Part shown: positions 10,747 through 28,552 of the stretch, one piece after another
Numbering within the stretch: the first letter of the stretch is position 1
Layout: each line of letters opens with the position of its first letter
Source: Pseudomonadota bacterium
Lineage (GTDB): Bacteria; Pseudomonadota; Gammaproteobacteria; Burkholderiales; Thiobacillaceae
DNA: 32,000 bases
Direction of reading: 5' to 3'
Assembly: GCA_021802555.1 (NCBI GenBank)
Contig: JAJZRU010000028.1
Coordinates: 5,937 to 37,936, forward strand
Program-made: the position numbers and the translations under genes
Notes under the pieces: model-generated
Database searches by the model: none
Seen by the model: the letters and a program-made list of their open reading frames with translations, nothing else
What the model was told of the DNA's origin: nothing

Positions 10747-11529
10747 TCAGCGGCCGATGAGCCCGCCGGTGGGCGAACTGGGGCTGGCCGTATAAATTTT
10801 CTTCGCCATGCGGCCCGCCAAGTAGGCGCGGCGGCCGGCGTCTACCGCCAGCTTCATCGCCTCGGCCATCAGCACGGGATTCTGTGCGCCGGCGATGGCC
10901 GTGTTCATGAGCACACCGTCGCAGCCCAGTTCCATGGCGATGGCCGCATCCGATGCGGTGCCCACGCCAGCGTCCACGATCAGCGGCACCTGGATGCGGT
11001 CGCGCATGATCCGCAGGTTCCAGGGATTGAGGATGCCCATGCCCGAGCCGATGAGCGAGGCCAGCGGCATGATGGCGACGCAGCCGAGGTCTTGCAGGCG
11101 CTGGGCGATGATGGGGTCGTCCGAGGTATAGACCATCACCTGGAAGCCGTCCCTGATCAGCACTTCGGCAGCCTTGAGCGTTTCCACCACGTTGGGGTAG
11201 AGGGTGTGCGCATCGCCTAACACCTCCAGCTTCACCAGCGCATGGCCGTCCAGCAGCTCGCGCGCCAGCCGCAGGGTGCGGATGGCTTCCTCCGCCGTGT
11301 AGCAGCCGGCCGTGTTGGGCAGATAGGTGTAGCGCGCGGGCGGCAGGGCGTCCAGCAGGGAGGGCTGGCCGGCATCCTGGCCGATGTTGGTGCGGCGGAT
11401 GGCCACGGTGACGATGTCCGCCCCAGAGGCCTCCACGGCGCGGCGGGTTTCGTCGAAATCCTTGTATTTGCCCGTGCCTACCAGGAGGCGGGAAGCATAG
11501 GACTTGCCGGCGATGACCAAGGGTTCCAT
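10747..11529 (-). CDS. thiG: thiazole synthase ThiG
   Basis: 260 aa. The N-terminus [19 protein letters not shown] and the TIM-barrel pattern are typical of ThiG. It lies downstream of thiS. Confidence 0.93.
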
Positions 11530-11595
11530 GTCTTACTCAAGCGAAGATGCAATAGAGGTTGATGGGCGTGCCTGTGACGGCGGGAAACGGACCAC

Positions 11596-11805
11596 TCAGC
11601 CGCCGCCCACGGCGGCGACGACTTCCAGCTTGTCGCCGTCGGCAAGCGCGATGTCGGCATAAGTGCTGCGCGGCACGATCTCCCCGTTGCGCTCGATGGC
11701 GACGCGCTTGCCGGCAAGCTCCAGGGCATCCACCAGCCCCGCCATCGTCAAGGGCGCGGGAAAAGACCGGGGCTCGCCGTTGATGGTCAGGCTCAATGAC
11801 TTCAT
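11596..11805 (-). CDS. thiS: sulfur carrier protein ThiS
   Basis: 69 aa starting MKSLSLTINGEP and ending in the ubiquitin-like C-terminal VGGG. The upstream part of tracked ORF 11596..11907 overlaps the tRNA gene and is not coding. Confidence 0.88.
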   Translation of the reverse strand: MKSLSLTINGEPRSFPAPLTMAGLVDALELAGKRVAIERNGEIVPRSTYADIALADGDKLEVVAAVGGG

Positions 11806-11870
11806 GGGAGCGGGGAATTCCAGTAAGATGCCTGCCTTGCAGAGCGCAAGGCTTGCGCAAAGTCTACCAT

Positions 11871-11944
11871 GCGGGTGTAGTTCAATGGTAGAACGGAAGC
11901 TTCCCAAGCTTCATACGAGGGTTCGATTCCCTTCACCCGCTCCA
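11871..11944 (+). tRNA. tRNA-Gly (anticodon CCC), CCA encoded
   Basis: Folds by hand into a cloverleaf. Acceptor stem is GCGGGTG/CACCCGC and D arm is GTTC-AATGGTA-GAAC. The anticodon arm is GAAGC-TTCCCAA-GCTTC, the variable loop is 4 nt, and the T arm is GAGGG-TTCGATT-CCCTT. The discriminator is T, followed by CCA. Confidence 0.93.
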
Positions 11945-11980
11945 TCTCCCACACAGCCGCGTCCGGCGGCGGGCCGCTCC

Positions 11981-12787
11981 TCAATGGGCGGCCGGTTTTT
12001 CGCTCGCCGGGGGCGCTTCCGGCTGCTCGGGGCCGAGCTGCTCCATCAGTTCGCGCGAGCTCAGGGCCCGTCCGCGGATCAGGTACTCCTGGTGCTGAAG
12101 CCAGGCGCTGCGCGCGAAGTAATAGGGAAACACGGCTTCCTTCACCATACGCACTGCGCCGCGCTCGGTGTAGCCCTCGTTCACCACGCCCAAGGTGGTG
12201 ATGCTCCACTGGGCCGGGGTGCTGCTCACGTAATAAAACGGGCTGGCGAGTATGGCCGCCGGAATGCCGGGCAGGCTGCGCAGGGAGGACGGACCGAAGA
12301 AGGGCAGCACCAGATAAGGGCCCTGCGGCACGCCCCATACGCCCAAGGTCACCCCCAGGTTGTTCTCATGCGGCGGCAGGTCGAAACGGTTCGCGAAATC
12401 GAACAGGCCGCCGACGCCGAATAGGGTGTTGCCCACGAAGCGGCTCACGTCGGACAGCCCCTGATGCACCCGCAGTTGCAGGAAGTCGTTGAGTATGATG
12501 TAAGGGTAGCCGGCGTTGGCGAAAAAATTGGCGACCCGTGTGCGCACGAACATCGGCGTGACTTGTTCGTAGCCTTTGGCTACGGGCTCGATCACATGAT
12601 CGTAGAGCCCCATGTTGAAATCGAAGACCTTCCGGTTCATGGGCTCCAGGGGGTCGGAGATCTCGGCGTCGGCGGCGTGCAGGCCGGGCTTGGTGCCGCC
12701 GCCGGTCGTCGCGCAACCCTGCAGGGAAGCCAGCGCCGCCGCCAGCAACAGGCCCATCGGCCACCTCTTGAACGCCGTCGGCATCAT
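11981..12787 (-). CDS. MlaA/VacJ family outer-membrane lipoprotein (last gene of the hopanoid cluster)
   Basis: 268 aa with a signal peptide and lipobox (LLAAALASLQGC). The VacJ-like core includes DPLEPMNRKVFDFN and GPYLVLPFFGPSSLR. Its ATG overlaps the hpnM stop (ATGA). Confidence 0.85.
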   Translation of the reverse strand: MMPTAFKRWPMGLLLAAALASLQGCATTGGGTKPGLHAADAEISDPLEPMNRKVFDFNMGLYDHVIEPVAKGYEQVTPMFVRTRVANFFANAGYPYIILNDFLQLRVHQGLSDVSRFVGNTLFGVGGLFDFANRFDLPPHENNLGVTLGVWGVPQGPYLVLPFFGPSSLRSLPGIPAAILASPFYYVSSTPAQWSITTLGVVNEGYTERGAVRMVKEAVFPYYFARSAWLQHQEYLIRGRALSSRELMEQLGPEQPEAPPASEKPAAH

Positions 12788-13428
12788 TCTTTTCCTTGCG
12801 CCATGCGCGCGATGTAGCCCTTGAGGCCGGCGATCAGGCCGGGGAAGCCTCGCTGCTCAAGCAGGTGGGTGAATTCCGCCTGCTTGAGCGCGAGGTCACT
12901 CACGCCGTCGGCGACGACGTTGATGACGCGCCACTGGCCGGCCACCGGCTGCATGAGGTAGTCGAGGCTGTGCACCTTGCCGCCGCTTTCGGTGAGCGTA
13001 CTGGAGACCACCATGCGGTTGGGCGGCAGCGGCTGGATGGACTTGATGGCGAAGCGCTCGCCGGCGTAGCCGTCGAAACGCGCCGCGTAGGTCGCTATGG
13101 TGTAGTCGCGCAGGGCGGCGACGAATTCCCGCTGCTGGGCGGGGCTGAGCCTGCTCCACTGGCCGCCCAGCACTAGGGCCGCCACGGCGGGGAAATCGTA
13201 GGTGCGCTCGATGACCGGCGCCAGGCTGCGGTAGCGCCCGGTGTAGCCGAGCTTGTGCGCCTGCTTCATGGCGGCGAGCAAGGCGTCGTCGAGCTGCTCG
13301 ACGACCAGGCGGGGCGCACCTGCCGCGGCAGCGTGCGGCGGCGCGGAGGCCGGCTCGGCCAGCGCGGCGGACGGGGCGGCGAGGGACAATCCGCCCAGCA
13401 GCAGAAAAACGAACGGCAGTTTTTTCAT
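12784..13428 (-). CDS. hpnM: HpnM, hopanoid-associated MlaC/Ttg2D-like periplasmic lipid-binding protein
   Basis: 214 aa with a Sec signal peptide (cleavage after AALA). The toluene-tolerance/MlaC-like pattern includes FDFPAVAALVLGGQW and WRVINVVADGVSDL. It starts 5 nt after hpnL. Confidence 0.82.
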   Translation of the reverse strand: MKKLPFVFLLLGGLSLAAPSAALAEPASAPPHAAAAGAPRLVVEQLDDALLAAMKQAHKLGYTGRYRSLAPVIERTYDFPAVAALVLGGQWSRLSPAQQREFVAALRDYTIATYAARFDGYAGERFAIKSIQPLPPNRMVVSSTLTESGGKVHSLDYLMQPVAGQWRVINVVADGVSDLALKQAEFTHLLEQRGFPGLIAGLKGYIARMAQGKE

Positions 13429-13433
13429 GGTCG

Positions 13434-14432
13434 TCAGCTCCTTGCGCGCGCGCGCCAGCGGCGATGCAGATTATGCCCTTCGGCTCCCTGCCACGCCAAC
13501 AGGAAGGGGAGGCCGAAAGCCACTTCGCGGAATCTGCGCGCGAGCGAAAAAGCCAGCGCCACATCCGGCGCGATGCCCACGCCTGCGCCGAACAGCATGA
13601 AGCCGCCTTCCTGTACGCCCAAGCCGGCCGGCACGACGAAGGTGGCGCTGCGCAGCGCCTGGCCCAGGCTTTCCAGCATCAGCGCCATGGCCAGGGAAAT
13701 GGGATGGTGCAGCAGTTGGAAAGTGAACCACACTTCCACGGCTCCCATGAGCAGGCCGGCCAGTTGCCAGAACAGGGCGACGGCCAGGGTCGATCGCCGC
13801 CGGTAAATCTGGCGCACGGTTTCGTCCAGGCGCGCCATGGTGCCGGCCCACGGGCTGTGGCGCCCCAGGATCGCCTTGAGCGCGCGCTCAAGGAACTGGA
13901 ACAAGCCCCAATGGTGCTGCAGCATGACGAACGCCGCGATCACCGGCAGCGTGACGAGCAGGCCCACCAGGATGTCGGCGATGAGCGCATGGTCGCGCAC
14001 GTAATGCGCCAGGATGGCGATGCCGATGAGGGTGAAAATCACCTGGCCCACCAGGGTCAGCGTGACCTCGACCACGATGCTGGCCGCCGCCATGTCGCCG
14101 GCGATGCCGCGCCGCGCGAGCAGGCGCACGCCCACCAGCTCGCCGCCCACGCGGGCGACGGGCAAGAGGCCGTTGACGGATTCGCGCACGCCGGCGACCC
14201 ACAGCAGGAAGGGGAAGCCGGCGCGCGGCTCGTCGCGCAGCAGCCTGCGCCAGCCCATGGCGTCCAGGCCGATGGGCAGGAGATGGAAGGGCACCAGCCA
14301 GAGCAGGCTCCACCCCGCCGTCAGGAGCATGCCGAAAATGTCGCCTGCGCCCTCCCGCACCACCAGCACGGTGGCCAGGGCCACGCCGAGCAGCGCAGCG
14401 GAATACATCCCGAGATGGACGATGCGCTTCAC
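13434..14432 (-). CDS. hpnL: HpnL, hopanoid-associated membrane protein (UPF0104 / MprF flippase-like TM domain)
   Basis: These are the last 332 codons of tracked ORF 13434..17039. GTG 14432 overlaps the hpnN stop (GTGA); ATG 14408 is an alternative start. It is polytopic, with the motif PARVGGELVGVRLL typical of the LPG-synthase-TM family. Confidence 0.8.
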   Translation of the reverse strand: MKRIVHLGMYSAALLGVALATVLVVREGAGDIFGMLLTAGWSLLWLVPFHLLPIGLDAMGWRRLLRDEPRAGFPFLLWVAGVRESVNGLLPVARVGGELVGVRLLARRGIAGDMAAASIVVEVTLTLVGQVIFTLIGIAILAHYVRDHALIADILVGLLVTLPVIAAFVMLQHHWGLFQFLERALKAILGRHSPWAGTMARLDETVRQIYRRRSTLAVALFWQLAGLLMGAVEVWFTFQLLHHPISLAMALMLESLGQALRSATFVVPAGLGVQEGGFMLFGAGVGIAPDVALAFSLARRFREVAFGLPFLLAWQGAEGHNLHRRWRARARS

Positions 14433-17110
14433 CCGTCTTCCTTGGGCGAGGGCGTGACCAACAGCAGCAGGGCGGGCAGCACGACGAGGATGCTCAGCAG
14501 CACCATGACCAGGGCCAGCGACAGCGTCCTGCCCAGGCTGGCCATGCCTGGGTCGTTGGAGATGGCCATGCTGCCGAAGGAGCTCAGGGTGGTGAGGCCG
14601 CTGAACAGCACCGCCGCCGGCGTGCTGGTCTGCAGCAGGTGGGAGATGCTCACGCCCTGGCGCCAGCGCGCTACCACATAAATGGCGAAGGCCACGCCCA
14701 GGCCGATGAGCAGGGGCAGGACGATGATGTTGCCGAGATTGAAGGGCAGGCCCAGCAGGGTCATGGCCGCCACGGTGTAGGCCGCCGCCAGCAGCAGCGG
14801 CAGCAGCACCAGCAGCACGTCCAGCCAGCGGCGCAGCACCAGCAGCAGCAGGCAGACGATGCCCGCCAGGGCGATGGCGCTGGCTTCCCGGAACGCGCCC
14901 GCCACGGCCTTGCCGCCGTCCACCAGCATGACCGGCGCGCCCACTGCCTGCGGCGCCACCGTGCGCACGGCGGCGACGAAGCGTTCCATGGCGACGGCCT
15001 GGCCGAGGTTGTGCTGCGGGAACACTTCCACGCGCGCCCGCCCGTCGGGCGCCAGGTAACGGCTGCGCAGATTTGCCGGCAGGTCGTCCAGGGTGACGGG
15101 GGCCGCACCGAGCGTGAGCGCCAGCCGGTTCAGTTCGGCGGGAAGCCCGCCCATGACGCGCCGCTGCAGTTGCGCCAGGTCGGCGCGGCCGGCGCCGAAG
15201 CGGGCGTGGAAAGCCTGCAAGGCGGCCAGCAGCGAGGCCGCGCTGCGGCGCACGGCGGCGTCGGCATCGTGCGCCGCCAGCGCGGCCAGGCTGTCCTGAA
15301 AGCGCGCCAGGGCGGCCGGCAGGCCGGGGCCGGGCAGCGCCGGCACGGCCCCGGCGTGCAGCGAGAAGGGCGGCACCAGCAGTTGCAGATTCTGCAGCAC
15401 GGCCAGTTTCTCGCCCTGCTGCGCGGGGACGTAGCTCGCCAGGGTAAGCGCCTGGGAGACCTCGGGCAGCCGTTGCAGGCGCGCCGCGAGCCGCTCGGCC
15501 GCGGCCAGGTCGGGCGCGACGATTTCGATGCGATAAGGCGACGTGGCGCGATCCTGCAGCAGTTGGCGGAACACGCGCACGCCTTCCGACTTCTGGTTGA
15601 TCATGTTGAGGGGGTCGAAGTCGAAGCGCACCTGGGCGATCAGCGGAATGGCGCCCAGGCTCAGCAGGAGCGCGCCCCCCACGATCCAGCGGCCGTAGCG
15701 GTGTATGGGATGGCGCGCCATCGCCACGCCTCCATGCACGCTCATGACCGGCTGCGCCGCGCCCGCCTTGCGCGGCGGCCAGAGCGTCAGCAGCGCCGGC
15801 AGGAGCGTGAGGGTGGCCAGCAGGGCGACGAACATGCTGATGCCCGAGATTAGTCCCAGGTCCACCATGCCGGCGTAGTGCGTCGGGACGAAGGAAAAAA
15901 AGCTGATGGCGGCGGCCGCCGCGGCCAGGCTCAGTGCGCTGCCCAGCCCTGCCGCAACGCGCCGCAGGGCCACCGGGTGCGGGGCGGCGTTGTGGACTTC
16001 TTCCTTGTAGCGCAGGCAGAACTGGATGCCGAAATCCACACCCAGGCCGATGAAGAGCACGGCAAAGGCCACCGACAAGAGATTGAACGGCCCGATGAAG
16101 GCGAGCGCCAAGGCGGCGGTCAGGATCATGCCGGTGATGAGGCTCGCCAGCACCGCGGCCACCAGGCGCGCCGAACGCAGGGCGACGGCCAGGAGCAGCA
16201 GCTCCAGGCCCAGGGTAAGCCCCAGGGCCAGGCCGGCGCTTTCCGCGACGGTCTTGATTTGCTCGGTGTCCAGCAGCGCGTCGCCGGTCAGCCCGATGCG
16301 CACGCCGTGGGCGGCATCCAGGCCGAGCGGGCCGAGCGCGGCGCGCAGGGCGCGGATGGGCCGCGCCGCAGGCTGCAGCGAGTGGTGATCGAGCACGGGG
16401 TTGAGGATGAGGAAGCGCTGCCGCGCGGCAGCCGCGCCGTCGCCGCCGGCCATCAGAGCGCCCCATCTCACGGCGTAAAAACGCCCGTCGGTCTGCGCCC
16501 GCACGGCCTGGTCCATCTGCTCCAGGAGCGGCGCCAGGCCCTGCACCTGCTGGCCCCCGTCGAGCCGCTGCTGCACGGCCGCGTGCAGGAGATCGACCAG
16601 GCCCTGCAGGCTGGCATCGCGCGCCAGGCTGGCGATCAGCGGCTGGGCGGCGACGATGCGGGCGGCGATCTGCCGCACCTGCGGCGGGTCGAGGTACAAC
16701 AGGCCGTTGCGCTGGAAGAATTCGCCTCCGCCCGGCGCATAGACGCCGGTGAACTCGGCCGGATGCGCGCGCGCCCAGGTTTCCAGCCGCTCCAGCGCGC
16801 TCGCCGCCAAGGCCGATGTGTCGCCGTCGATGACCACCACGAGGGTGTTGCCGGTCTGCGGAAACGCCTGGCGGTAGGCGTGCTCCAGGCGCTGGAACGG
16901 CAGGTCGCGCGACAGGATGCCGCTCGTGTCGGTGTCCATGCTGAAGTGCGTGGCGCTGTAGTACGCGGCTGCCAGCAGCATGGCCAGCGCGAGCGCCAGC
17001 ACGCTGCGCGCCCGGCTGTGCGAGCGCTCCACCAGCCACAGCAGGCCTTTCATGTAGCGGTGTCCGAGCGATCGCAGGCGCAGGTCAAGCGTGGACCAGA
17101 TGGAGTTCAC
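14429..17110 (-). CDS. hpnN: HpnN, hopanoid-associated RND-type transporter
   Basis: 893 aa with an RND/MMPL-like architecture: two TM bundles and two large periplasmic domains. GTG 17110 has a GGAGGA Shine-Dalgarno 9 nt upstream; ATG 17053 (MKGLLWLVERS) is an alternative start. Confidence 0.88.
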   Translation of the reverse strand: MNSIWSTLDLRLRSLGHRYMKGLLWLVERSHSRARSVLALALAMLLAAAYYSATHFSMDTDTSGILSRDLPFQRLEHAYRQAFPQTGNTLVVVIDGDTSALAASALERLETWARAHPAEFTGVYAPGGGEFFQRNGLLYLDPPQVRQIAARIVAAQPLIASLARDASLQGLVDLLHAAVQQRLDGGQQVQGLAPLLEQMDQAVRAQTDGRFYAVRWGALMAGGDGAAAARQRFLILNPVLDHHSLQPAARPIRALRAALGPLGLDAAHGVRIGLTGDALLDTEQIKTVAESAGLALGLTLGLELLLLAVALRSARLVAAVLASLITGMILTAALALAFIGPFNLLSVAFAVLFIGLGVDFGIQFCLRYKEEVHNAAPHPVALRRVAAGLGSALSLAAAAAAISFFSFVPTHYAGMVDLGLISGISMFVALLATLTLLPALLTLWPPRKAGAAQPVMSVHGGVAMARHPIHRYGRWIVGGALLLSLGAIPLIAQVRFDFDPLNMINQKSEGVRVFRQLLQDRATSPYRIEIVAPDLAAAERLAARLQRLPEVSQALTLASYVPAQQGEKLAVLQNLQLLVPPFSLHAGAVPALPGPGLPAALARFQDSLAALAAHDADAAVRRSAASLLAALQAFHARFGAGRADLAQLQRRVMGGLPAELNRLALTLGAAPVTLDDLPANLRSRYLAPDGRARVEVFPQHNLGQAVAMERFVAAVRTVAPQAVGAPVMLVDGGKAVAGAFREASAIALAGIVCLLLLVLRRWLDVLLVLLPLLLAAAYTVAAMTLLGLPFNLGNIIVLPLLIGLGVAFAIYVVARWRQGVSISHLLQTSTPAAVLFSGLTTLSSFGSMAISNDPGMASLGRTLSLALVMVLLSILVVLPALLLLVTPSPKEDG

Positions 17111-17978
17111 CGAAACTCGTCCTCCGGTAGCGCGGATCGTCCAGGACTCTCCTGACGGCCGGACTCAAAAGCGCGGCCAGTTCGTCCTCATGGCGATAGC
17201 CGGGCATGCGCCGCTTGAGCTCGGCGGTGCGCGCCGCCGCGGGATGGAAATAAAGCTCGCTTACGCCGTCGGGCAGACAGCGCAGCAGTTGCAAGAGCCT
17301 TGCCTCATCCCAGGCGCCGCTGTGGGCGAGCCCGAAGAGGTAATCGTTGTGGCCGATGTCGGCACGGCGCAGGCGCCGGCGCAGCAGGGCCAGCCAGGGC
17401 AGCAGGAACGCCGACCAGGCCAGGCGCCCGGCGACGTCTTCTTTCAGGCAGCGCGCGGTCTGCCACGGCTCGTAGGGCAGGCGCACGCAGCGCAGGCCGT
17501 AGGCACGGCCGATGTCCAGGATCAAGGCCAGAACGGTGGGATGCACGTGCATGTGCTTGTGGGCGTTCACGTGATCCAGGACCAGGCCCGTGGCGCGGAA
17601 GGCGTCGAACTGGGCGCGGATTTCCGCCGCCAGTTGGCGGCGCACGCGCGGCAGAAAGAAGAAGCGCACGCCCGGGCCGAATTGGCCGGCGCGGAATTCT
17701 CCCTCGGGGGTCGCCAGGTCGGGGATGGCGCGCGGCGGGAGCACGCAGCGGCCGTCCACCAGGGTGATGTGCAGGCCCACGCGCAGGCCCGGCAGGCGCC
17801 GGGCGCGCGCCACCGCGTCGGCGGCGGCCGGGGCGCCGACCATGAGGCTGGCGCCGGTCAGTATGCCGTCGCGGCAAGCGCGTTCCACCGCCTCGTTGAC
17901 TGCCTCGTCCAGGCCGAAATCGTCGGCGGTGACGATCAGGCGCTTCGCGGCTCCGTGCTTTCCTGAGTTCCCGCTCAA
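17085..17978 (-). CDS. hpnK: HpnK, YdjC-family deacetylase of the hopanoid pathway
   Basis: These are the last 297 codons of tracked ORF 17085..18953. It has the YdjC motif RLIVTADDFGLDEAVNEA and HVNAHKHMHVHP. No ATG or GTG lies in frame before the DD motif, so TTG 17978, which overlaps the hpnJ stop (TTGA), is the likely start. Confidence 0.82.
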   Translation of the reverse strand: MSGNSGKHGAAKRLIVTADDFGLDEAVNEAVERACRDGILTGASLMVGAPAAADAVARARRLPGLRVGLHITLVDGRCVLPPRAIPDLATPEGEFRAGQFGPGVRFFFLPRVRRQLAAEIRAQFDAFRATGLVLDHVNAHKHMHVHPTVLALILDIGRAYGLRCVRLPYEPWQTARCLKEDVAGRLAWSAFLLPWLALLRRRLRRADIGHNDYLFGLAHSGAWDEARLLQLLRCLPDGVSELYFHPAAARTAELKRRMPGYRHEDELAALLSPAVRRVLDDPRYRRTSFGELHLVHA

Positions 17979-19396
17979 TTGTGGCGCTGGCGCAGGAAGC
18001 GCATGAATTCGACGCCTTCGCGCAGGCGCCGCTTCATCATCTGCGTGCTGCGCAGCATTTCGCCGGTGATCTCGGCGATCTTGCCGGCGCGGAAATAAAA
18101 GCGCTTGTAGAAGGTTTCCACGGAATCGAAGATTTCGGTCGCACCCAGATGCGGATAGCTCAGCGGGCTGATCTGTATGCCGCGGTCGTTGACCAGATGA
18201 TCCTGGCTCTCCGTGCTCAGCCAACCCTCTTTTTTGGCCTGTTCGTAGAGATAGGTGCCGGGATAAGGCGCGGCGATGGAGACCTGTATGGTGTGGGGGT
18301 TGATCTCCTTGGCGAAGCGTATGGTTTCCTCGATGGTTTCCTTGGTCTCGCCCGGCAGGCCGAGGATGAAGGTGCCGTGGATGGCGATGCCCAGCTTGTG
18401 GCAGTTGCGCGTGAACTCGCGCGCCTTCTCCACCTTCAGCCCTTTCTTGATGTTGTTGAGGATCTGCTGGTTGCCCGCCTCGTAGCCCACCAGCAGCAGG
18501 CGCAGGCCGTTGTCCTTCAGCACCTTGAGGGTGTCGTAGGGGACGTTGGCCTTGGCGTTGCACGACCAGGTCACGCCCAGCGCGCCCAGTCCGCGCGCAA
18601 TGGCTTCGGCGCGCGGACGGTTGTCGGTGAAAGTGTCGTCGTCGAAAAAGATCTCCTGCACCTGCGGAAAGGTCTGTTGGATGTATTTCACTTCCTCCAG
18701 CACGTGCTCCGGGCTGCGCACGCGGTAGCGATGCCCGCCCACGGTCTGCGGCCACAGGCAGAAGGTGCAGCGCGAATGGCAGCCGCGCCCCGTGTAGAGG
18801 GACACATAGGGGTGCTTGAGATAGCCGATGAAATAGTCCTCCACGCGCAGATCGCGCTGATAGACCTTGGAGACGAAGGGCAGGCTGTCCATGTCCTCGA
18901 TCATGGCGCGCGGCGGCGTGTGCACGATGCGGCCGTCCCCATCGCGGAAGCACAGGCCGTCCACTTCCGCCAGAGGCCGCCCCTCGGCCACCTCCTTGAG
19001 GGTGAAGTCGAACTCCTCGCGCGCCACGAAATCGATGGCCGGCGAGGCCTGCAAAGACGCCTCGGGCTCCACCGCGACCTTGGCGCCCACCATGCCTATC
19101 ATCAGCCCCGGACAGGCTGCCTTGAGGGCCTCAGCCACGCGCACGTCGGAAGGAAAGGACGGCGTGCTGGTGTGGATCACGCACAGCTCGTAGTCGCGCG
19201 CGATGCGCAGCGTTTCCGCCAGGTCGATGCCGGAGGCGGGGGCGTCCACCAGGCGGCTGTCCGGCACCAGCGCCGCCGGCTGAGCGAGCCAGGTGGGGTA
19301 CCAGAAAGAACGAATTTCGCGCTTGGCCTGATAACGCGCGCCGGCCCCGCCGTCAAAGCCATCGAAGGACGGCGCCTGCAAAAAGAGGGTTTTCAT
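17975..19396 (-). CDS. hpnJ: HpnJ, B12-binding-domain radical SAM protein of the hopanoid pathway
   Basis: 473 aa starting MKTLFLQAPSFDG. It has an N-terminal B12-binding-like domain and a radical SAM motif (CHSRCTFC). Its ATG overlaps the hpnI stop (ATGA). Confidence 0.88.
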   Translation of the reverse strand: MKTLFLQAPSFDGFDGGAGARYQAKREIRSFWYPTWLAQPAALVPDSRLVDAPASGIDLAETLRIARDYELCVIHTSTPSFPSDVRVAEALKAACPGLMIGMVGAKVAVEPEASLQASPAIDFVAREEFDFTLKEVAEGRPLAEVDGLCFRDGDGRIVHTPPRAMIEDMDSLPFVSKVYQRDLRVEDYFIGYLKHPYVSLYTGRGCHSRCTFCLWPQTVGGHRYRVRSPEHVLEEVKYIQQTFPQVQEIFFDDDTFTDNRPRAEAIARGLGALGVTWSCNAKANVPYDTLKVLKDNGLRLLLVGYEAGNQQILNNIKKGLKVEKAREFTRNCHKLGIAIHGTFILGLPGETKETIEETIRFAKEINPHTIQVSIAAPYPGTYLYEQAKKEGWLSTESQDHLVNDRGIQISPLSYPHLGATEIFDSVETFYKRFYFRAGKIAEITGEMLRSTQMMKRRLREGVEFMRFLRQRHN

Positions 19397-20526
19397 CGCA
19401 ATGCTCCATGTGTTTTTTCCATCCGCCCATCGGCGCGGACGGAGAAATGCTCCTGCCGCCAATGCACCCGCCTGCCCAAAAGCGCATGCAGCCAGATGGC
19501 CAGGCCGAGGAAATCCGCCGCCAGGAAGGTCCAGTCCCCGGTGCGCGTGGCGCCCCCCCAGGCGCGCTGCGCCGCCAGATGCAGCGCGATCCGCAGGATC
19601 AGTGCCAGGCCGAGGGTGGCCAGGCCCAGGCCGCCCAGCGGCGCTGCCAGCAGAGCCAGGGGCAGGGGGTAAGTCAAAAATGAGAAAGCGTGCCCCAGCG
19701 GCTGCACCGTGCGGATGGTGCGGGACCAGCGCAGGGCGTGGCGGTAGCAGCTCGCCAGGCTGTCCTCGTGCACCCGCGTGTCCACCAGGGGGTGCGACAG
19801 CACGGTGCGCAACCCGAGCGCGCGGACGCGCGCGCCCAGCAGGTAGTCGTCCGCCAGGTGATCGGCCAGGGCGGCAAAACCGCCTATGGCGTCGAGCGTG
19901 GCGCGCCGCAGCGCCAGGGTCGCACCGCCGCAGAAGGTGTTCGGCCCGAGCCATTGCGCCACCAGGACCGACGGCGCGAAGCCCTCGTTGATGTGCTGGG
20001 CCAGCAGGCGCGAGCCTATACCGCGATCGGGCACGCCGCGGTACAAACAGGTCACCACGCCCACGGCAGGGTCTGCCAGCGGCGCCACCACGTCGCGCAG
20101 ATAATCCGGCGCCACGCGCACGTCGGCATCGCTCAACACCAGGATGTCATGCCGGGCGCTGCTCAGCATGTTGTGCAGATTGCCCACCTTGCGGTTCGCG
20201 CCCAGGGTGCGTTCGTCGATCACCAGCTCCAGGTCATGCTCCGGGAATTCTTCCTGCAGGCGGCGCACCACCGCCACGGCGGGATCGCCCGCATGGTGCA
20301 CGCCAAAGACGATCTGCAAGACGGGATAGCGCTGGCACACGAAGCTGCGCAGGTTTTCGTAGAGTTCTGGCTCCTCGCCGTGCAGGGGCTTGAGGAGAGT
20401 GACCGGGGGCGTGTAGGGCATCGTGGTCGCCGGGCGCCGCGGCCAGCGCAAGAGCGCCGCGATGGCCGCACCTTCATACGCCAGCGCCGGCCAAGCCAGC
20501 AGCGGCAACAGCTCGGCGGCGGCCAT
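19393..20526 (-). CDS. hpnI: HpnI, hopanoid-associated family-2 glycosyltransferase
   Basis: About 377 aa with a GT2 core (VTLLKPLHGEEP ... VLSDADV) and TM segments at both ends. ATG 20526 or GTG 20529 overlaps the hpnA stop. Confidence 0.85.
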   Translation of the reverse strand: MAAAELLPLLAWPALAYEGAAIAALLRWPRRPATTMPYTPPVTLLKPLHGEEPELYENLRSFVCQRYPVLQIVFGVHHAGDPAVAVVRRLQEEFPEHDLELVIDERTLGANRKVGNLHNMLSSARHDILVLSDADVRVAPDYLRDVVAPLADPAVGVVTCLYRGVPDRGIGSRLLAQHINEGFAPSVLVAQWLGPNTFCGGATLALRRATLDAIGGFAALADHLADDYLLGARVRALGLRTVLSHPLVDTRVHEDSLASCYRHALRWSRTIRTVQPLGHAFSFLTYPLPLALLAAPLGGLGLATLGLALILRIALHLAAQRAWGGATRTGDWTFLAADFLGLAIWLHALLGRRVHWRQEHFSVRADGRMEKTHGALR

Positions 20527-21536
20527 CACGCCCTTCCTTCCAATGCGCTGCCCAGTGAGATGTCGCGCCGAAACCAGCGCACCGCGTCAACGAAGGCCTC
20601 CTGCGCCGGACGGTGGACGTAGCCCAGTTCGCGCTCCGCCTTGGCGGAGCTGAAATACATTTTCCCGGCGCTCATGCGCAGCTCGTCCAGGGTCACCCGC
20701 GGCAGCCCGCCGCGCAGACGCGCCCAGGCCTCGGCGCCCGCCGCCAGGGGATAGAGCGCGCGACGCGGCAGGCGCAGGCGCGGCGGAGCGCAACCCGCGA
20801 TTTGCGCGATGCGCCCGAGGATCTGCTTGAGCGGCAGATTCTCGCCGCCCAGGATGTAGCGCTCGCCGATCCTGCCGCGCTGGAAGGCCAGCCAGTGGCC
20901 TTGGGCCACGTCGTCCACGTGCACGATGTTCAGGCCGGTATCCACATAGGCCGGCATGCGGCCCGCGGCGGCGTCGCGCACCATGCGCCCGGTGGGCGTC
21001 GGCTTGACGTCTCCCGGGCCTATGGGCGTGGAAGGATTGACGATGACCGCCGGCAGCCCCGCTTCGCGGCACAGCGCGCGCACCGCTTCCTCGGCCAGGA
21101 ACTTGGAACGTTTGTAATGCCCCACCATGTCCGCCAGGCTGGACGGTATTTCCTCGTCGGCCGGCTGGCCGTCGGAGCGCTTCCCCAGCACCGCCACGCT
21201 GCTGGTGTAGACGATGCGCTCCAGTCCCGCGTCCAAGGCCGCACGCATGAGCGCCGCCGTGCCGTCCACGTTGCTGGCATACATGGCCGCGGCATCGGGC
21301 ACCCACAGGCGGTAGTCCGCTGCCACATGGAAAAGAGTCTGGCAGCCGGACACGGCCAGCCGCAGGCTGGATGCATCCCTGAGATCGCCCGTCACGACTT
21401 CGATATCCGTCTGCCGCCAGGCGCTCGTGTCGCTGCCCGGGCGCACCAGGACGCGCAGCTCGATGCCCTGGGCGAGCAGCCGCCGCTGCACCGCCGCGCC
21501 CACGAATCCCGAGGCTCCGGTGAGCAAGGCCTTCAC
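20526..21536 (-). CDS. hpnA: HpnA, hopanoid-associated NAD-dependent sugar epimerase/dehydratase family protein
   Basis: 336 aa with the Rossmann motif LLTGASGFVG and the YxxxK motif (YKRSK) of SDR-type epimerases. The GTG start overlaps the hpnG stop (GTGA). Confidence 0.85.
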   Translation of the reverse strand: MKALLTGASGFVGAAVQRRLLAQGIELRVLVRPGSDTSAWRQTDIEVVTGDLRDASSLRLAVSGCQTLFHVAADYRLWVPDAAAMYASNVDGTAALMRAALDAGLERIVYTSSVAVLGKRSDGQPADEEIPSSLADMVGHYKRSKFLAEEAVRALCREAGLPAVIVNPSTPIGPGDVKPTPTGRMVRDAAAGRMPAYVDTGLNIVHVDDVAQGHWLAFQRGRIGERYILGGENLPLKQILGRIAQIAGCAPPRLRLPRRALYPLAAGAEAWARLRGGLPRVTLDELRMSAGKMYFSSAKAERELGYVHRPAQEAFVDAVRWFRRDISLGSALEGRA

Positions 21537-22234
21537 GTCGCCAGCCCTTCCGCGCCCAGTTGCGCCCAGGCGCGCCTGAGGCTGTTCAGCGCCAGCCGCA
21601 GATCGCCGCCCAGGCGCAGCAAGTCCACGATTTCCCGGGGCCGGTGCAGCAAAGCGCGCAGCAGGGGGGCGGCACGCGGCCGGCCGTAGGCATCGACGCC
21701 GGCTACGGCCGCCTGCGGCAGGGAGGTCGCGGCACCGTCCACCACCGCGCGCAGCACCAGGCCGGGCACGCCCGCCGCAGCGGCCACTTCCAGTACCGCG
21801 CCGCTCTCCATATCGACGGCGTCGGCCCCCGTTTCACGGTGCATCCGCGCCTTGTCCGCGGCCGTGGCGAGCGGCTGGGGCAGGGTCAGCAGCAGTCCCC
21901 CCGAGGGGCGGGGCGAGAGGCGTCGCTCGATGCGCTGTCTCCAGGACAAGTCCACGGCACGATACTCTCCCCGGAAGGCAACGCGCTCGGGCAGCAGCAG
22001 GGTGCCCGGTGCCAGCTCGGGTGCCAGCGCGCCCGCCAGGCCGTAGCTCACCAAGGCGGTGGCTCCGTCCGCCAGCAGGGCACGCGCCGCTGCGGCCGCC
22101 TTTTCCGGCCCCATGCCGCAAAGGCGCAGGGCGAGGGAAGTACCGATTGCCAGGGTTGCGCTCCGGAGCAAGTCACCGCGCGGCAGCAAGGTCCGGGCTT
22201 CGTTTTGCAGGGCCACTACCATACCCACTCTCAC
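21533..22234 (-). CDS. hpnG: HpnG, hopanoid-associated nucleoside phosphorylase family protein
   Basis: 233 aa with a PNP/MTAN-like fold signature (VDMESGAV). GTG 22234 overlaps the shc stop (GTGA); ATG 22222 is an alternative start. Confidence 0.82.
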   Translation of the reverse strand: MRVGMVVALQNEARTLLPRGDLLRSATLAIGTSLALRLCGMGPEKAAAAARALLADGATALVSYGLAGALAPELAPGTLLLPERVAFRGEYRAVDLSWRQRIERRLSPRPSGGLLLTLPQPLATAADKARMHRETGADAVDMESGAVLEVAAAAGVPGLVLRAVVDGAATSLPQAAVAGVDAYGRPRAAPLLRALLHRPREIVDLLRLGGDLRLALNSLRRAWAQLGAEGLAT

Positions 22235-24159
22235 GCGCCGGCCGTTTCCATCATGCGCCGGTAGCGCGCCAGCGCCCAGAGCGGGAAATAGCTGCGATAA
22301 CCGTGGTAGATGAGATAGAACACGCGCGGAAAGCCCGGGGCGTTGAAATAGGGATCGCGCCAGCAGCCGTCCTCCTGATGTTCCATCAGCCAGCTTATGC
22401 CGCGCCGCACCGCCGGATTATGTCCCTGGCCGGCGGCCATCAGGCCCAGGCAGGCCCAGGCCGTGTGCGCGGCGGCGGAAGGCTGGCCGCGGCCGGCGAG
22501 GCCGGGATCGAGATAGCTGTCGTTGGTTTCGCCCCAGCCGCCGTCGGCCTGCTGCACGGACATCAGCCAGGCCGCGGCGCGCTCCATCGCCTCCCGCGGC
22601 CGGGCGTCGCCCAGCAATTCGAGGGCCGTGAGCACCGACCAGGTGCCATAGATGTAATTGGTGCCCCAGCGCCCGAACCAGGCGCCGCTGCTTTCCTGCT
22701 CGCGCAGGAGGAACTGCACGCCGCGCTCCAGCGCCGGGCGATCCTGCGGGCGGCCCAGATGGGCCAGGAAGGCGACCACGCGCGCGGTCACGTCGGCGCT
22801 CGGCGGGTCCAGCAGGGCCTTGTGGTCCGCGAATGGTATCTCGTTGAGGTAATGATGGGTGTTGTCGGCATCGTAGGCGGCGAAGCCGCCGTTTTTGGAC
22901 TGCATGGCCACCAGCCAGTCCGCAGCGCGTTCCAGGGCGGCGCGCTGCCGGGGCCCGGCCACGCGCGCGATGGCCCAGGCCACCGCGGCCGTGTCGTCCA
23001 GGTCGGGGTAATAATCGTTGTGGTATTGGAAGGCCCAGCCGCCGCCGCGCACGCCGCGATGGTTGGCCTGCCAGTCGCCCGCCGCCTCGGTGATCTGGCG
23101 CTGCATGAGCCAGTCCACTGCGCCGTGCATCTGCGGGCCGGGCGTTTCGCTTTCGTGCAGGGCGTGGAGGGCCAGCGCCGTGTCCCAGGTGGGCGAGACG
23201 CAGGGCTGGCAATAGGCGTCCTCGGAGCGTTCTATGACCAGGCGCCGCAGCGCCGCGCCGGCTTGGCGTCGATAGGGGTGGTCCGGCGCGTAGCCCAGCA
23301 GCGCCAGTGCCTGGTAGGCGTTGACCATGGCCGGGAAGATGCCGTTGATGCCGTCTTCGCCGTTCAGGCGCGCGGTGAACCATTGCTCCGCCGCACGGAT
23401 GGCGCGCCGGCGCAGGGCAGCGGGAATCAGCGGCTCGATGCCGCGGCCCAGGCCGTCCAGGAGCAGGAATATCCGGCCCCAAAGTGTCGCGCCGCTGGCG
23501 CGCATGTAGTCCTTGATCTGCTGCGGATCCCCATGGAACAGTTCGCGGATGCCTATGCCGCCGGGATTGGCCGCACGGGCCTTGAGCGTGCACAGCACGA
23601 ACAGGGGCACCATCACCGTGCGCGCCCAGGAAGACACCTTGTAGATGTGGAAGAAGAACCAGCGCGGCAGCAGCATGATTTCCGCGGGTATGAAAGGCAC
23701 CGCGCGCCAGGGCAGTTGGCCGAAGTAGGCGAGCGTGATGCGCGTGAACACATTGCAGCGTTCCGCGCCGCCGCATGCCAGGATCGCCTGGCGGGCGCGG
23801 CGCATGTGCGGCGCCTCCGGGTCGTCGCCCGCCAGCTTGAGCGCGTAGTAGACCTTCACCGCGCAGCTGACGTCGGTCTGCCCGCCCCAGTACAGGGGCC
23901 AGCCGCCGTCGGCGTTCTGGCGCGCGCGGAGGTAGCGCGCCAGCTTGGCCTGCAGCGCGCCGTCGATCTCATCCATGAAATGCATCATCAGGATGTATTC
24001 GGCCGGGATGGTGCAATCGGCCTCGAATTCGAAGCACCAGTGCCCATCGGCACGCTGGCGGCTCAGCAAGGCGGCGCGCGCCTGCGCGATGGCCGCATCC
24101 AGCGGCGCATCCTTGGTTAGCGGCATGCTCAGCGGCCGCTCGGGCATGGCTTCAGGCAT
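22231..24159 (-). CDS. shc: squalene-hopene cyclase
   Basis: Has the catalytic DxDDTA motif (YYPDLDDTAAVAWAI) and multiple QW repeats (for example QADGGWGE, QSKNGGFA, QNADGGWP). The start is ambiguous: 24180 GTG, 24159, 24147 or 24126 ATG. ATG 24159 overlaps the sqs stop by 8 nt. Confidence 0.93.
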   Translation of the reverse strand: MPEAMPERPLSMPLTKDAPLDAAIAQARAALLSRQRADGHWCFEFEADCTIPAEYILMMHFMDEIDGALQAKLARYLRARQNADGGWPLYWGGQTDVSCAVKVYYALKLAGDDPEAPHMRRARQAILACGGAERCNVFTRITLAYFGQLPWRAVPFIPAEIMLLPRWFFFHIYKVSSWARTVMVPLFVLCTLKARAANPGGIGIRELFHGDPQQIKDYMRASGATLWGRIFLLLDGLGRGIEPLIPAALRRRAIRAAEQWFTARLNGEDGINGIFPAMVNAYQALALLGYAPDHPYRRQAGAALRRLVIERSEDAYCQPCVSPTWDTALALHALHESETPGPQMHGAVDWLMQRQITEAAGDWQANHRGVRGGGWAFQYHNDYYPDLDDTAAVAWAIARVAGPRQRAALERAADWLVAMQSKNGGFAAYDADNTHHYLNEIPFADHKALLDPPSADVTARVVAFLAHLGRPQDRPALERGVQFLLREQESSGAWFGRWGTNYIYGTWSVLTALELLGDARPREAMERAAAWLMSVQQADGGWGETNDSYLDPGLAGRGQPSAAAHTAWACLGLMAAGQGHNPAVRRGISWLMEHQEDGCWRDPYFNAPGFPRVFYLIYHGYRSYFPLWALARYRRMMETAGA

Positions 24160-25210
24160 CCGGCGCCGCCGCCCGCGCACAGGCCGCGCGCCGCGCGCCG
24201 CGCGGCAGGCCGATGCCCAGGGCGAAGAACAACTGGCGCAGCAGCCAGTCGCGCTGCGCCGCGAAACGGCTCACGCGTATGGTCGCCGCGACGCTGCGGC
24301 GGGTGATCTTGACCTGCCGGCCTTCGCTGAAATCGAGATGGCGGTGCAGTTTGCGCAAGGTGAGCATGGCCATGCCCGCGGCCCACAGGCAGAAATTGCG
24401 TATGCCTTCTTCCTCGCGCGGAATCAGCAGGGTGTAGTCCAGGGCGTCTTTCAGGCAGGTGCGGGCTTCTGCGATCAGCTTGTCCATGCCCTGGGCGAAG
24501 CCCGGGTTGTCGCGCCCCGGTTCCAGCCGGCTCAGATCACAGCCCTGGGCCAGGAAGACGTCGCGCGGCAGCCAGCAGGCGCCCCGGCGCCGGTCTTCCC
24601 AGACGTCCTTGAGGATGTTGGTCATCTGCAGGCCCTGGCCGAAGGACACGGCGCGGGCCATGAGGGCGTCGCGATTGCGCGCGACGGCCGGGGAATAATC
24701 GCAGAACAATCGGGTGAGCATCTCGCCCACCACGCCGGCCACATAATAGCAGTAGTGCGCATGTTCGGCCAGATCGGCGAGGCCGTCCAGGCTCTTGCGC
24801 TGCTGGAAATCCGCCATGCCGCCCGCCATGATGCGCACGCATTCCGTGATGGCCGCGCGCTGCGCGGGCGCGAAGCCGTGCATGATAGCGATGACCCTGG
24901 GCATGGCGCGCACCAGCGTGTGCTCGTAGGCGGAGGCCGTCGGCGCCAGCGCAGGGATCAGGCTGTCCACCCAGAGCTGGGCATCTTCCGCACCCTCCAC
25001 CGCGCGCACGAAGCGCGCATAGAACTCGCGCTTGCCGGCCACCGGCAGCGCAGTCTCGTCCTCTATGGTGTCGACGATGCGGCACAGCAGGTAGGCGTTG
25101 CCCACCACGCGCACCAGAGAGGCGGGCAGTTGCGGAATGGTGAGCGCGAAGGTGCGCGAAACTCCTTCCAGCAGCACTTCCTGGAAGTGGTCGTCGTCGG
25201 CGGGCTGCAT
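24152..25210 (-). CDS. sqs: squalene synthase (farnesyl-diphosphate farnesyltransferase, single-enzyme SQS type)
   Basis: Belongs to the squalene/phytoene synthase family, with SRTFALTIPQLP and the first Asp-rich motif (VDTIEDE). It also has YCYYVAGVVGEM and a second acidic motif (NILKDVWED). The ATG is at 25210; TTG 25240 is an alternative start with a GGAGGG Shine-Dalgarno 7 nt upstream. Confidence 0.82.
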   Translation of the reverse strand: MQPADDDHFQEVLLEGVSRTFALTIPQLPASLVRVVGNAYLLCRIVDTIEDETALPVAGKREFYARFVRAVEGAEDAQLWVDSLIPALAPTASAYEHTLVRAMPRVIAIMHGFAPAQRAAITECVRIMAGGMADFQQRKSLDGLADLAEHAHYCYYVAGVVGEMLTRLFCDYSPAVARNRDALMARAVSFGQGLQMTNILKDVWEDRRRGACWLPRDVFLAQGCDLSRLEPGRDNPGFAQGMDKLIAEARTCLKDALDYTLLIPREEEGIRNFCLWAAGMAMLTLRKLHRHLDFSEGRQVKITRRSVAATIRVSRFAAQRDWLLRQLFFALGIGLPRGARRAACARAAAPDA

Positions 25211-25290
25211 GAGCTCCGGGTTCGCGTCTTCAGCGGCCAAGGGGTTTTCCCTCCACCGCGATGTACGTCGCCTTGCCAGCTTGTACCATG

Positions 25291-26400
25291 TCAGCGCTGT
25301 TCCGCGCTTTCGCCGCCGGAGGCGATGGGTATGGCTTCGATGCCGCGGTAGCGCATGGTGGGTTCGGCGACCATGGCGCCCGCCGTGCGCGGCCCGCGCC
25401 AGTGGACCCACAAGGCCTTGAGTGGGTGGGCGACGGCGTCGTCCACGGCGCTGCCCTCGTAGCCGCAATGCGCCAGGCAGTTGTTGCAGGCCGGGTGCCG
25501 GCCGGTACCGTAGCGCTCCCAGGCGGTCTCTTCCATGAGGGCGTTAAAGCTCGCGGCATAGCCGCCCTCGGCCATGAGATAGCAGGGGCGCTGCCAGCCG
25601 AAGATGTTGCGCGTGGGGTTGCTCCAGGGCGTGCAGTGGTAGTCCTGGTTGCCGGCGAGAAAGTCCAGGAACAGGCTCGAATGGTTGAGCGGCCAGCGGC
25701 GCGGGCGCTGCGCGCCTCTTTTGAATATCTCGCGGAACAGGCGCTTGCTCTGGCGCCGCTGCAGGAACACGTCCTGGCGCGGCGCGCGTTCGTAATCGTA
25801 ACCCGGCGACACGGTGATGCCTTCCACGTCCAGCCCGCTGCAAAAATCGAAGAACTCGGCGACCTCGTCGGGGTCTTCGCCCTGGAACAGGGTGCAGTTG
25901 ACGTTGACCCGGAAGCCGCGGCGGCGCGCCTCGCGGATGGCGTCGATGGCGGTGTCGAACACGCCTTCGCGGCAGACGGAGGCGTCATGGCGCTCGCGCA
26001 GGCCGTCGAGATGGATGGAGAAAGTGAGATAGGGCGAGGGCCGGTAGTCGGCGAGCTTTTTCTTGAGCAGTATGGCATTGCTGCACAGATAGACGAATTT
26101 CTTGCGCGCCACGATGCCGGCGACGATCGCAGGCATGTCCTTGTGTATGAGTGGCTCGCCGCCGGGGATGGACACCACGGGTGCATCGCATTCGTCCACC
26201 GCGGCCAGGCATTCCTCGATGCTCAGGCGCCGACTCAGGATGTCCTGGGGGTAGTCGATCTTGCCGCAGCCGGCGCAGGCGAGGTTGCACTGGAACAGCG
26301 GCTCCAGCATCAGCACCAGGGGATAGCGCCGCCGGCCGCGCAGCTTCTGCTGCACGATATAGCGGGCGATGCGGTATTGCTGTTTCAGGGGAATGCTCAT
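25291..26400 (-). CDS. hpnH: HpnH, adenosylhopane-forming radical SAM enzyme
   Basis: 369 aa starting MSIPLKQQYRIARYIVQQKL, with a radical SAM motif (CNLACAGC). The upstream part of tracked ORF 25291..26781 overlaps ispH and is not coding. Confidence 0.88.
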   Translation of the reverse strand: MSIPLKQQYRIARYIVQQKLRGRRRYPLVLMLEPLFQCNLACAGCGKIDYPQDILSRRLSIEECLAAVDECDAPVVSIPGGEPLIHKDMPAIVAGIVARKKFVYLCSNAILLKKKLADYRPSPYLTFSIHLDGLRERHDASVCREGVFDTAIDAIREARRRGFRVNVNCTLFQGEDPDEVAEFFDFCSGLDVEGITVSPGYDYERAPRQDVFLQRRQSKRLFREIFKRGAQRPRRWPLNHSSLFLDFLAGNQDYHCTPWSNPTRNIFGWQRPCYLMAEGGYAASFNALMEETAWERYGTGRHPACNNCLAHCGYEGSAVDDAVAHPLKALWVHWRGPRTAGAMVAEPTMRYRGIEAIPIASGGESAEQR

Positions 26401-26405
26401 GGGGG

Positions 26406-27359: not shown

Positions 27360-27415
27360 GTTCTCCTCCTTATCGCAGGGGCGGCGGGCGACGCCCGGCT
27401 GGCTTGAATCGCCGC

Positions 27416-28540: not shown

Positions 28541-28552
28541 GCCGGCATGCTA

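Follow-up and report, generated by a model that had tools for sequence, protein, structure and literature searches.

A hopanoid operon that ends in hpnN, hpnL, hpnM, and an mlaA-like gene in an uncultured Burkholderiales bacterium encodes candidate parts of a route to the outer membrane

Introduction

How do hopanoids cross the periplasm once they have passed the inner-membrane protein HpnN? The answer matters for the robustness of membranes, for how Burkholderia and acidophiles tolerate antibiotics and acid, and for how lipid carriers of the Mla type gain new cargo. Hopanoid synthesis takes place on the cytoplasmic face and involves Sqs, Shc, HpnH, HpnG, HpnI, HpnK, and HpnJ. Here we analyze a 32,000-nucleotide stretch of DNA, the window, from an uncultured bacterium of the Thiobacillaceae (GenBank assembly GCA_021802555.1, contig JAJZRU010000028.1, positions 5,937 to 37,936 of the forward strand). 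Its hopanoid operon ends in hpnN, hpnL, hpnM, and an mlaA-like gene, which makes it a clean, compact case with all candidate parts within a single operon.

The original prediction for this locus, made from the sequence alone, read the four genes as a hybrid route in which hopanoids are flipped, extracted by an RND pump, ferried by an MlaC-like carrier, and inserted by an MlaA-like lipoprotein. Our analysis supports this interpretation in part. We lean towards the view that the four proteins act together in the transport of hopanoids from the inner to the outer membrane; the direction of transport, the cargo, and the flip step are what we infer. The system has been predicted in print and annotated in databases for years. 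Beyond the 2025 preprint discussed below, the sole addition is that structure and synteny argue that HpnL is a translocator within the transport route rather than an enzyme of biosynthesis.

Using microsynteny, Lawrence, Pan, Ollikainen & Belin (bioRxiv 10.1101/2025.07.29.667474; v1 July 2025, revised March 2026) found hpnL, hpnM, and an MlaA-domain family enriched near shc/hpnN. They named this family hpnS and proposed an Mla-like route that leads from HpnN to HpnM to HpnS, so this part of the hybrid route is already a published prediction. Their AlphaFold 3 (AF3) model of B. multivorans HpnM and HpnS with diploptene places diploptene in the HpnM pocket, as a prediction only, and they cite Tripathi et al. 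for second mlaC copies beside hopanoid genes. According to what the preprint gives of it, GenProp0761 (TIGRFAMs, hopanoid lipid biosynthesis) lists HpnL, HpnM, HpnN, and a 'VacJ-like lipoprotein/PF04333' that is confusingly named HpnO. The name hpnS was found in no other paper of the collection searched. According to a 2025 survey (PMC12583986), hpnL and hpnM still have elusive functions; together with the preprint, it agrees with the earlier statement that HpnL, HpnM, and the MlaA paralog have experimentally undefined roles.

Organization of the operon

The window carries 13 genes on the minus strand in the order ispH, hpnH, sqs, shc, hpnG, hpnA, hpnI, hpnJ, hpnK, hpnN, hpnL, hpnM, and mlaA-like. 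We confirm from the sequence the last four open reading frames (ORFs), their coordinates (Table 1), and the junctions that the original prediction had described. The hpnN stop codon TGA (14431-14429) and the hpnL start codon GTG (14432-14430) overlap as GTGA, a gap of 5 nt separates the hpnL stop (13434) from the hpnM ATG (13428), and the hpnM TGA and the mlaA-like ATG (12787) overlap as ATGA. The starts of hpnL, hpnM, and the mlaA-like gene each have an AAGGA-type ribosome-binding site in front of them. Metagenome contigs of the same organism in ENA, annotated by an independent gene caller, give identical products of 893, 332, 214, and 268 amino acids (aa).

Start/stop overlaps of 4 nt are also present at shc/hpnG, hpnG/hpnA, hpnA/hpnI, hpnI/hpnJ, and hpnJ/hpnK (17085-24180), with several GTG or TTG starts, and hpnK shares 26 nt with hpnN when GTG 17110 is taken as the hpnN start. 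Because tight junctions run along nearly the whole 13-gene string, we predict one long operon of which the four genes are the tail, and no separate unit. NCBIfam matches of the upstream operon genes are all above cut-off except for sqs, which is covered by PF00494 (195 bits).

The window has hpnI, hpnJ, and hpnK but lacks hpnO. The expected polar products are therefore bacteriohopanetetrol (BHT)-glucosamine and BHT cyclitol ether, not aminobacteriohopanepolyols, and the (amino)bacteriohopanepolyols named earlier as cargo have to be replaced by these. The absence of MlaFEDB genes from the cluster, also noted earlier, holds more widely: no MlaD, MlaE, MlaF, or MlaB domain is encoded in the window or in the ~6 kb past its left end; about 40 kb of sequence was covered for this organism.

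Families and folds of the four proteins

The four family assignments of the original prediction hold, and every match to a hidden Markov model (HMM) that it had expected was obtained (TIGR03480, TIGR03476/PF03706, TIGR03481/PF05494, and PF04333). HpnN scores 976.3 bits against TIGR03480 (cut-off 751.85), also matches PF03176, and remains below a newer, stricter equivalog, NF052374 (718.9 versus 1100). It aligns over its full length (residues 29-882) to the solved HpnN structures 6WU0/5KHN at about 465-467 bits, with D359 aligned to D344, T840 to T818, and M848 to L826 of the solved protein. These charged or polar transmembrane residues reportedly have a functional role in HpnN. HpnN also matches the BstA model (175 bits). 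Loss of HpnN depletes the outer membrane of hopanoids in R. palustris (Doughty 2011, as cited in PMC12583986 and PMC10942540).

HpnL scores 338.9 bits against TIGR03476 (cut-off 195.65) and 82.7 against PF03706 (cut-off 33.4), and falls below the cut-off of the generic TIGR00374 (37.1 versus 43.2). PF03706 is the sole domain in HpnL and in 120 of 120 homologs among the matches listed, with no GNAT/synthase or glycosyltransferase domain. The earlier description of HpnL as MprF-flippase-like is borne out by its fold. For the AlphaFold2 (AF2) model (predicted local distance difference test, pLDDT, 93.4; predicted template modeling score, pTM, 0.89), the only real fold matches in the PDB are MprF of R. 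tropici (RtMprF, 6LVF, TMq 0.56) and of P. aeruginosa (PaMprF, 9GOE, TMq 0.54), with probability 1.00, and the next-best match has a TMq of at most 0.26. Against PDB sequences, neither the single HpnL sequence nor a 49-sequence profile gave a match, even at E = 10.

The part of MprF that is matched is the flippase domain. The size of HpnL (~300 aa) and its long helices with two short helix pairs fit Subdomain 1 of this domain, which in RtMprF comprises Leu24-Arg325 and contains the lipid-binding cavity (PMC8131360). The MprF domain translocates lipids without ATP (PMC8131360; PMC11980842), and in vitro PaMprF is a promiscuous, energy-independent lipid scramblase (PMC11980842). The invariant residues E275 and R300 of HpnL may match the E280-R304 pair of RtMprF, a guess made on two unaligned proteins. 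HpnL lacks the C-terminal cytosolic synthase (GNAT) domain and the transmembrane Subdomain 2 of MprF, so it is not an MprF and only kin to its translocator module.

An hhalign comparison of HpnL with E. coli YbhN (PF03706) is weak (probability 23%, E = 8.6e-4), and only the PAGxGVxE region is convincing. In E. coli K-12, ybhN comes directly after clsB, which encodes cardiolipin synthase B, and its start codon overlaps the clsB stop codon (L090 3543-5740). In the clsB-ybhN pair, too, an MprF-type transmembrane domain that stands alone is coupled with an enzyme for lipid head groups.

HpnM scores 233.7 bits against TIGR03481 (cut-off 160.1) and 136 against PF05494 (cut-off 26), far above its score for the MlaC equivalog NF011697 (52 bits, cut-off 195). 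The sequence begins with a Sec-type signal with AxA cleavage (MKKLPFVFLLLGGLSLAAPSAALA followed by EP) and has no lipobox cysteine, so we predict a soluble periplasmic protein despite the database name "membrane protein". Residues 39-214 of the AF2 model have a pLDDT > 90, and the model resembles the MlaC/Ttg2D structures 5UWA, 2QGU, and 5UWB with a TMt of 0.77-0.81 (0.81 to 5UWA). HpnM has been detected as an exported protein in proteomes (PMC4545795; PMC10853474), and in F. caldus vesicles MlaC and HpnM are distinct proteins (PMC10853474). A tblastn search of plasmids with HpnM gave only distant matches in Azospirillum and Roseomonas, and the Roseomonas locus is rearranged beside a transposase.

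The MlaA-like protein scores 214 bits against PF04333 (cut-off 25), is well under the cut-off of the MlaA equivalog NF011672 (104.2 versus 375), and matches the solved MlaA structures 5NUQ/5NUO with 92 bits by sequence. Its lipobox reads LQGC25, followed by Ala. The gene fits the preprint's definition of hpnS: it has a PF04333/IPR007428 domain, overlaps the hpnM stop, and lies 1.6 kb from hpnN and ~9.4 kb from shc. As a control, the canonical MlaA of Paraburkholderia sprentiae (41-43% identical to the window protein) is encoded within mlaF-E-D-A-C-B, away from hopanoid genes, while two more MlaA-like homologs of similar rank, found in a separate protein search, adjoin hpnM inside hopanoid clusters. 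In a neighbor-joining tree, 61 hpnM-adjacent sequences fall on one side and 53 canonical-side sequences on the other, the latter including the Paraburkholderia gene and the solved enterobacterial MlaA.

Forty positions are conserved in both the HpnS and the canonical MlaA groups, including D45, P46, and N51. The sole robust group-specific residue is W151 (codon 12335-12337), which is Trp in 95% of the hpnM-adjacent sequences and Tyr in 100% of the canonical ones; it sits immediately before a conserved GxxxGPY motif. We considered whether the window gene is a housekeeping mlaA that stands here by chance. Both its conserved adjacency to hpnM in dozens of species and a score well short of the MlaA equivalog cut-off contradict this. 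Among relatives, the Acidithiobacillia possess a separate mlaDCEF cluster (PMC8886135). Past the tRNA gene, thiS-thiG (10747-11860) adjoin the mlaA-like gene, and thiS-thiG-thiE lie directly upstream of the Paraburkholderia mlaFEDACB genes (L085 3390-9047); the shared thi neighborhood may be a coincidence or a remnant of an ancestral neighborhood.

Conservation of gene order across species

Gene order was compared in 80 hpnM loci from different GTDB species, each with up to 10 kb of flank on either side, onto which the 13 proteins of the window were mapped by tblastn. The mlaA-like gene had been expected to stand directly downstream of hpnM in other species, and this adjacency is conserved: in 59 of the 78 loci with enough downstream sequence (76%), hpnM is immediately followed by a same-strand MlaA-like gene, and 2 others carry such a gene close by. 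At least one other hopanoid gene is present in 72 of the 80 loci, within the DNA covered. The hpnN gene is followed directly by hpnL in 28 of 43 testable hpnN loci, and these 28 are nearly all of the loci with an HpnN at least 42% identical to that of the window.

These adjacency counts make two pairs, hpnN-hpnL and hpnM-mlaA-like, the conserved units. The claim that the four genes form one coupled unit is accordingly too strong, as the pairs are contiguous in the window and its close relatives and other junctions of the operon are equally tight. In Acidithiobacillia hpnH stands between the pairs, and in many Gammaproteobacteria hpnH-hpnM-mlaA-like is found upstream of hpnA-hpnI-hpnJ-hpnK-hpnN-hpnL. 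The nearest loci belong to three metagenome-assembled genomes named "Proteobacteria bacterium" (L005-L007), where HpnM identity is 63-77% and HpnJ identity reaches 98%. Gene order from shc to the mlaA-like gene is identical in the complete Burkholderiales bacterium GJ-E10 genome, and Acidithiobacillia are next closest (50-60% identity).

Loci without an MlaA-like neighbor are mainly from Desulfobacterota, where hpnM adjoins hpnN or shc. In L032, L034, L045, and L073, which have no MlaA-like gene, hpnM is still directly beside hpnN, and the order in Salinisphaera and Pelomicrobium is hpnL-hpnM-hpnN. In Nitrosomonas (L063, L069), gyrA comes directly after hpnH-hpnM, and neither an MlaA-like gene nor hpnN lies within 10 kb. 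Five Desulfobacterota loci (L025, L032, L034, L056, and L068) contain a second, very divergent MlaC-like ORF (21-24% identity) at 1-2.5 kb from hpnM, perhaps a different arrangement that does the same job.

The presence of hpnL goes together with that of hpnJ/K. Among 45 hpnN loci, 29 have both, 3 have only hpnL, 3 have only hpnJ/K, and 10 have neither (Fisher p = 2e-5, a statistic that ignores phylogeny).

Proposed route and alternatives

In the route that we propose, the biosynthetic enzymes Sqs, Shc, HpnH, HpnG, HpnI, HpnK, and HpnJ make hopanoids on the cytoplasmic face, and HpnL, a stand-alone MprF-type domain, would shift those with polar heads to the periplasmic leaflet. HpnN, a proton-driven RND pump, would then pull hopanoids from the inner membrane, a step shown for orthologs by R. 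palustris genetics and Burkholderia structures. The soluble MlaC-fold carrier HpnM may ferry the lipid over the periplasm, and the MlaA-like lipoprotein HpnS may dock HpnM and pass the lipid to the outer membrane. Overall, the periplasmic and outer-membrane hardware of Mla would operate on an RND pump in place of the MlaFEDB ABC complex.

We favor such a hopanoid route because each of the four proteins has the family and fold assigned to it and because their genes share one tightly coupled operon with hopanoid biosynthesis genes. It is also favored by the adjacency of hpnM and the mlaA-like gene, by that of hpnM and hpnN in loci with no MlaA-like gene, and by the place of the canonical MlaA control away from hopanoid genes. 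HpnM scores as HpnM and not as MlaC, and it is exported in proteomes. Further reasons are the translocation of lipids by the MprF domain, the parallel with BstABC, and the fact that the same route was independently proposed in the preprint.

The role of HpnL is the more tentative part. It is possible that HpnL is an inner-membrane translocator (flippase or scramblase) for polar-headed hopanoids, a model-based reading suggested by three findings: HpnL folds like the MprF domain, hpnL forms a conserved pair with hpnN, and it co-occurs with hpnI, hpnJ, and hpnK. If so, HpnL would pass BHT-glucosamine or BHT cyclitol ether on to HpnN, and the hpnN-hpnL and hpnM-hpnS pairs would be two modules of a single route. 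HpnL would also correspond, in split form, to proteins such as MprF and AglD, in which an enzyme is fused to PF03706. This role for HpnL is absent from the preprint and from any other paper that we found, and it is the sole part of the route not in print.

Several points weigh against the proposed route. MlaC binds lipid very tightly, so we know of no precedent for delivery from such a carrier to MlaA. The hopanoid producers Nitrosomonas, Desulfobacterota, Salinisphaera, and Pelomicrobium have hpnM with no adjacent MlaA-like gene. Only 51 of 100 bootstraps of the neighbor-joining tree cleanly separate hpnM-adjacent from canonical MlaA sequences, and for this reason we do not claim monophyly of HpnS; the window protein is 41% identical to the canonical MlaA of Paraburkholderia versus 40% to the median hpnM-adjacent sequence. 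In the literature we found no experiment on HpnL, HpnM, or HpnS. R. palustris localizes hopanoids via HpnN in a lineage that uses HpnT and not HpnM/HpnS (bioRxiv 10.1101/2025.07.29.667474), and canonical Mla is generally described as acting from the outer to the inner membrane (PMC11131202).

That direction is the starting point of a different explanation, in which the system is retrograde or homeostatic: HpnS would take outer-membrane hopanoids and give them to HpnM for return to the inner membrane, possibly through HpnN. It would resemble retrograde Mla and also the hand-over from NPC2 to NPC1, where an RND-type protein receives its load from a soluble carrier. The 40 positions that HpnS shares with canonical MlaA suggest the same channel architecture, and canonical MlaA-MlaC is described as retrograde (PMC11131202; PMC11537012). 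We nevertheless judge a retrograde system quite unlikely, as the depletion of outer-membrane hopanoids in R. palustris after HpnN loss points to export (Doughty 2011, as cited), and co-transcription with biosynthesis genes suits delivery of a new product better than retrieval. Even less probable, in our estimate, is that HpnM and HpnS carry phospholipid or another envelope lipid and share regulation with hopanoid synthesis so that the outer membrane is rebalanced as hopanoids enter it. Every solved MlaC/Ttg2D relative does bind phospholipids according to the PDB descriptions, and HpnS is hardly nearer to other HpnS than to canonical betaproteobacterial MlaA, with W151 as the sole robust group-specific residue. 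However, HpnM forms its own HMM family apart from the MlaC equivalog, the linkage to hpnH, hpnN, or shc holds in several phyla, no MlaD/E/F partner is encoded nearby, and AF3 puts diploptene in the HpnM pocket (bioRxiv 10.1101/2025.07.29.667474; prediction only).

A further alternative concerns HpnL, which may be no flippase and serve instead as a scaffold or accessory subunit of HpnN, or in head-group modification of extended hopanoids. We regard this as unlikely, though less so than either alternative above. The direct hpnN-hpnL order in 28 of 43 loci would also suit a structural partner, and MprF Subdomain 1 performs best with Subdomain 2, which HpnL lacks (PMC8131360). The preprint does not settle the function but, from an analogy to lysyl-PG synthases, suggests chemistry of the aminoacyl type (bioRxiv 10.1101/2025.07.29.667474). 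This enzymatic version is weakened by the domain content, since PF03706 as the only domain in HpnL and in the 120 homologs among the matches listed leaves no catalytic domain for aminoacyl transfer, and the matching part of MprF is the lipid-translocating domain.

Feature coordinates and neighboring genes

Table 1. Features of the hopanoid operon and its downstream boundary, in window coordinates.
Feature	Position	Strand	Description
hpnN	14429-17110	minus	893 aa from GTG 17110; alternative ATG 17053 gives 874 aa; inner-membrane hopanoid transporter, RND type (MMPL/HAE3)
hpnL	13434-14432	minus	332 aa; polytopic inner-membrane protein consisting solely of an MprF/AglD-type transmembrane domain, candidate lipid translocator
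hpnM	12784-13428	minus	214 aa; secreted soluble periplasmic protein with MlaC/Ttg2D fold, candidate hopanoid carrier
mlaA-like gene (= hpnS, Lawrence et al. 2025)	11981-12787	minus	268 aa; MlaA/VacJ-family outer-membrane lipoprotein
ispH, hpnH, sqs, shc, hpnG, hpnA, hpnI, hpnJ, hpnK	17085-27437	minus	Hopanoid synthesis and side-chain elaboration; upstream part of the operon
tRNA-Gly(CCC)	11871-11944	+	Found by ARAGORN; convergent with the operon, 37 nt beyond the mlaA-like stop codon; downstream boundary
Possible shared/bidirectional terminator (tRNA and operon)	11972-11993		G+C-rich hairpin and T-run on the + strand, overlapping the mlaA-like stop; consensus scan only

The operon region contains 16 terminator-like sites, versus 8.1 +/- 3.7 expected, so the evidence for a terminator at 11972-11993 is weak. 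A promoter scan of the operon was uninformative (1 promoter-like site versus 1.2 expected).

Squalene appears to come from a single eukaryote-type squalene synthase (24152-25468; PF00494 195 bits; TIGR01559 112 bits, below cut-off) and not from HpnC/D/E. The longest sqs ORF has ~98 unaligned N-terminal residues and a 178-nt overlap with hpnH, so the true start is probably internal.

Beyond the tRNA gene, thiS and thiG lie downstream of the operon, and mutY and a DUF1631 gene lie upstream. The rest of the window contains ccoNOP-ccoG, hemW, a CPA2 antiporter gene, greB, marC, and trmB, and its left extension holds bioBFHCD, a gene for an Rrf2 regulator, and ccoN. The DUF1631 gene (787 aa; 28547-30916, minus strand; 521 bits), whose protein gave no entry on look-up, is mirrored by an antisense ORF of 757 aa with no family matches. 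Such long spurious ORFs on the opposite strand are typical of this DNA of 65-72% G+C.

Comparison with known systems

The closest system is the route proposed in the 2025 preprint, which is based on the same gene families, with an MlaC-like HpnM and an MlaA-domain lipoprotein near shc/hpnN, and on the same hypothesis. It differs in that HpnL is left outside and unexplained and flipping is never mentioned, whereas hpnL stands here between hpnN and hpnM and encodes a protein with the fold of the MprF flippase domain. The organism analyzed here, an uncultured relative of Burkholderiales bacterium GJ-E10, is not among the preprint's model species. GenProp0761 includes the same hopanoid-associated families, as a database association without a mechanism.

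The Mla system of E. coli (MlaFEDB, MlaC, and MlaA/OmpC) shares with this locus an MlaC-fold carrier and an outer-membrane lipoprotein of the MlaA family. Unlike E. coli Mla, the locus encodes no ABC/MCE inner-membrane complex and has an RND pump instead, and its cargo and direction are presumed to be different. HpnM and the MlaA-like protein also score well below the MlaC and MlaA equivalog cut-offs.

The BstA-BstB-BstC sterol transport system of Methylococcus capsulatus (PMC10942540) likewise combines an HpnN-like inner-membrane RND protein, a periplasmic lipid binder, and an outer-membrane-associated protein, and its genes, as here, are encoded with those for polycyclic triterpenoid biosynthesis. 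However, BstB is PhnD-like and BstC is of the TRAP-T type, so neither has the MlaC or MlaA fold, and the cargo is 4-methylsterols. For HpnL alone, the nearest known module is Subdomain 1 of the MprF flippase (RtMprF 6LVF, PaMprF 9GOE), which has the same fold, Pfam domain, size of ~300 aa, and paired half-helices. HpnL differs from MprF in that it has no Subdomain 2, no tRNA-dependent synthase domain, and no sequence-level match to MprF chains.

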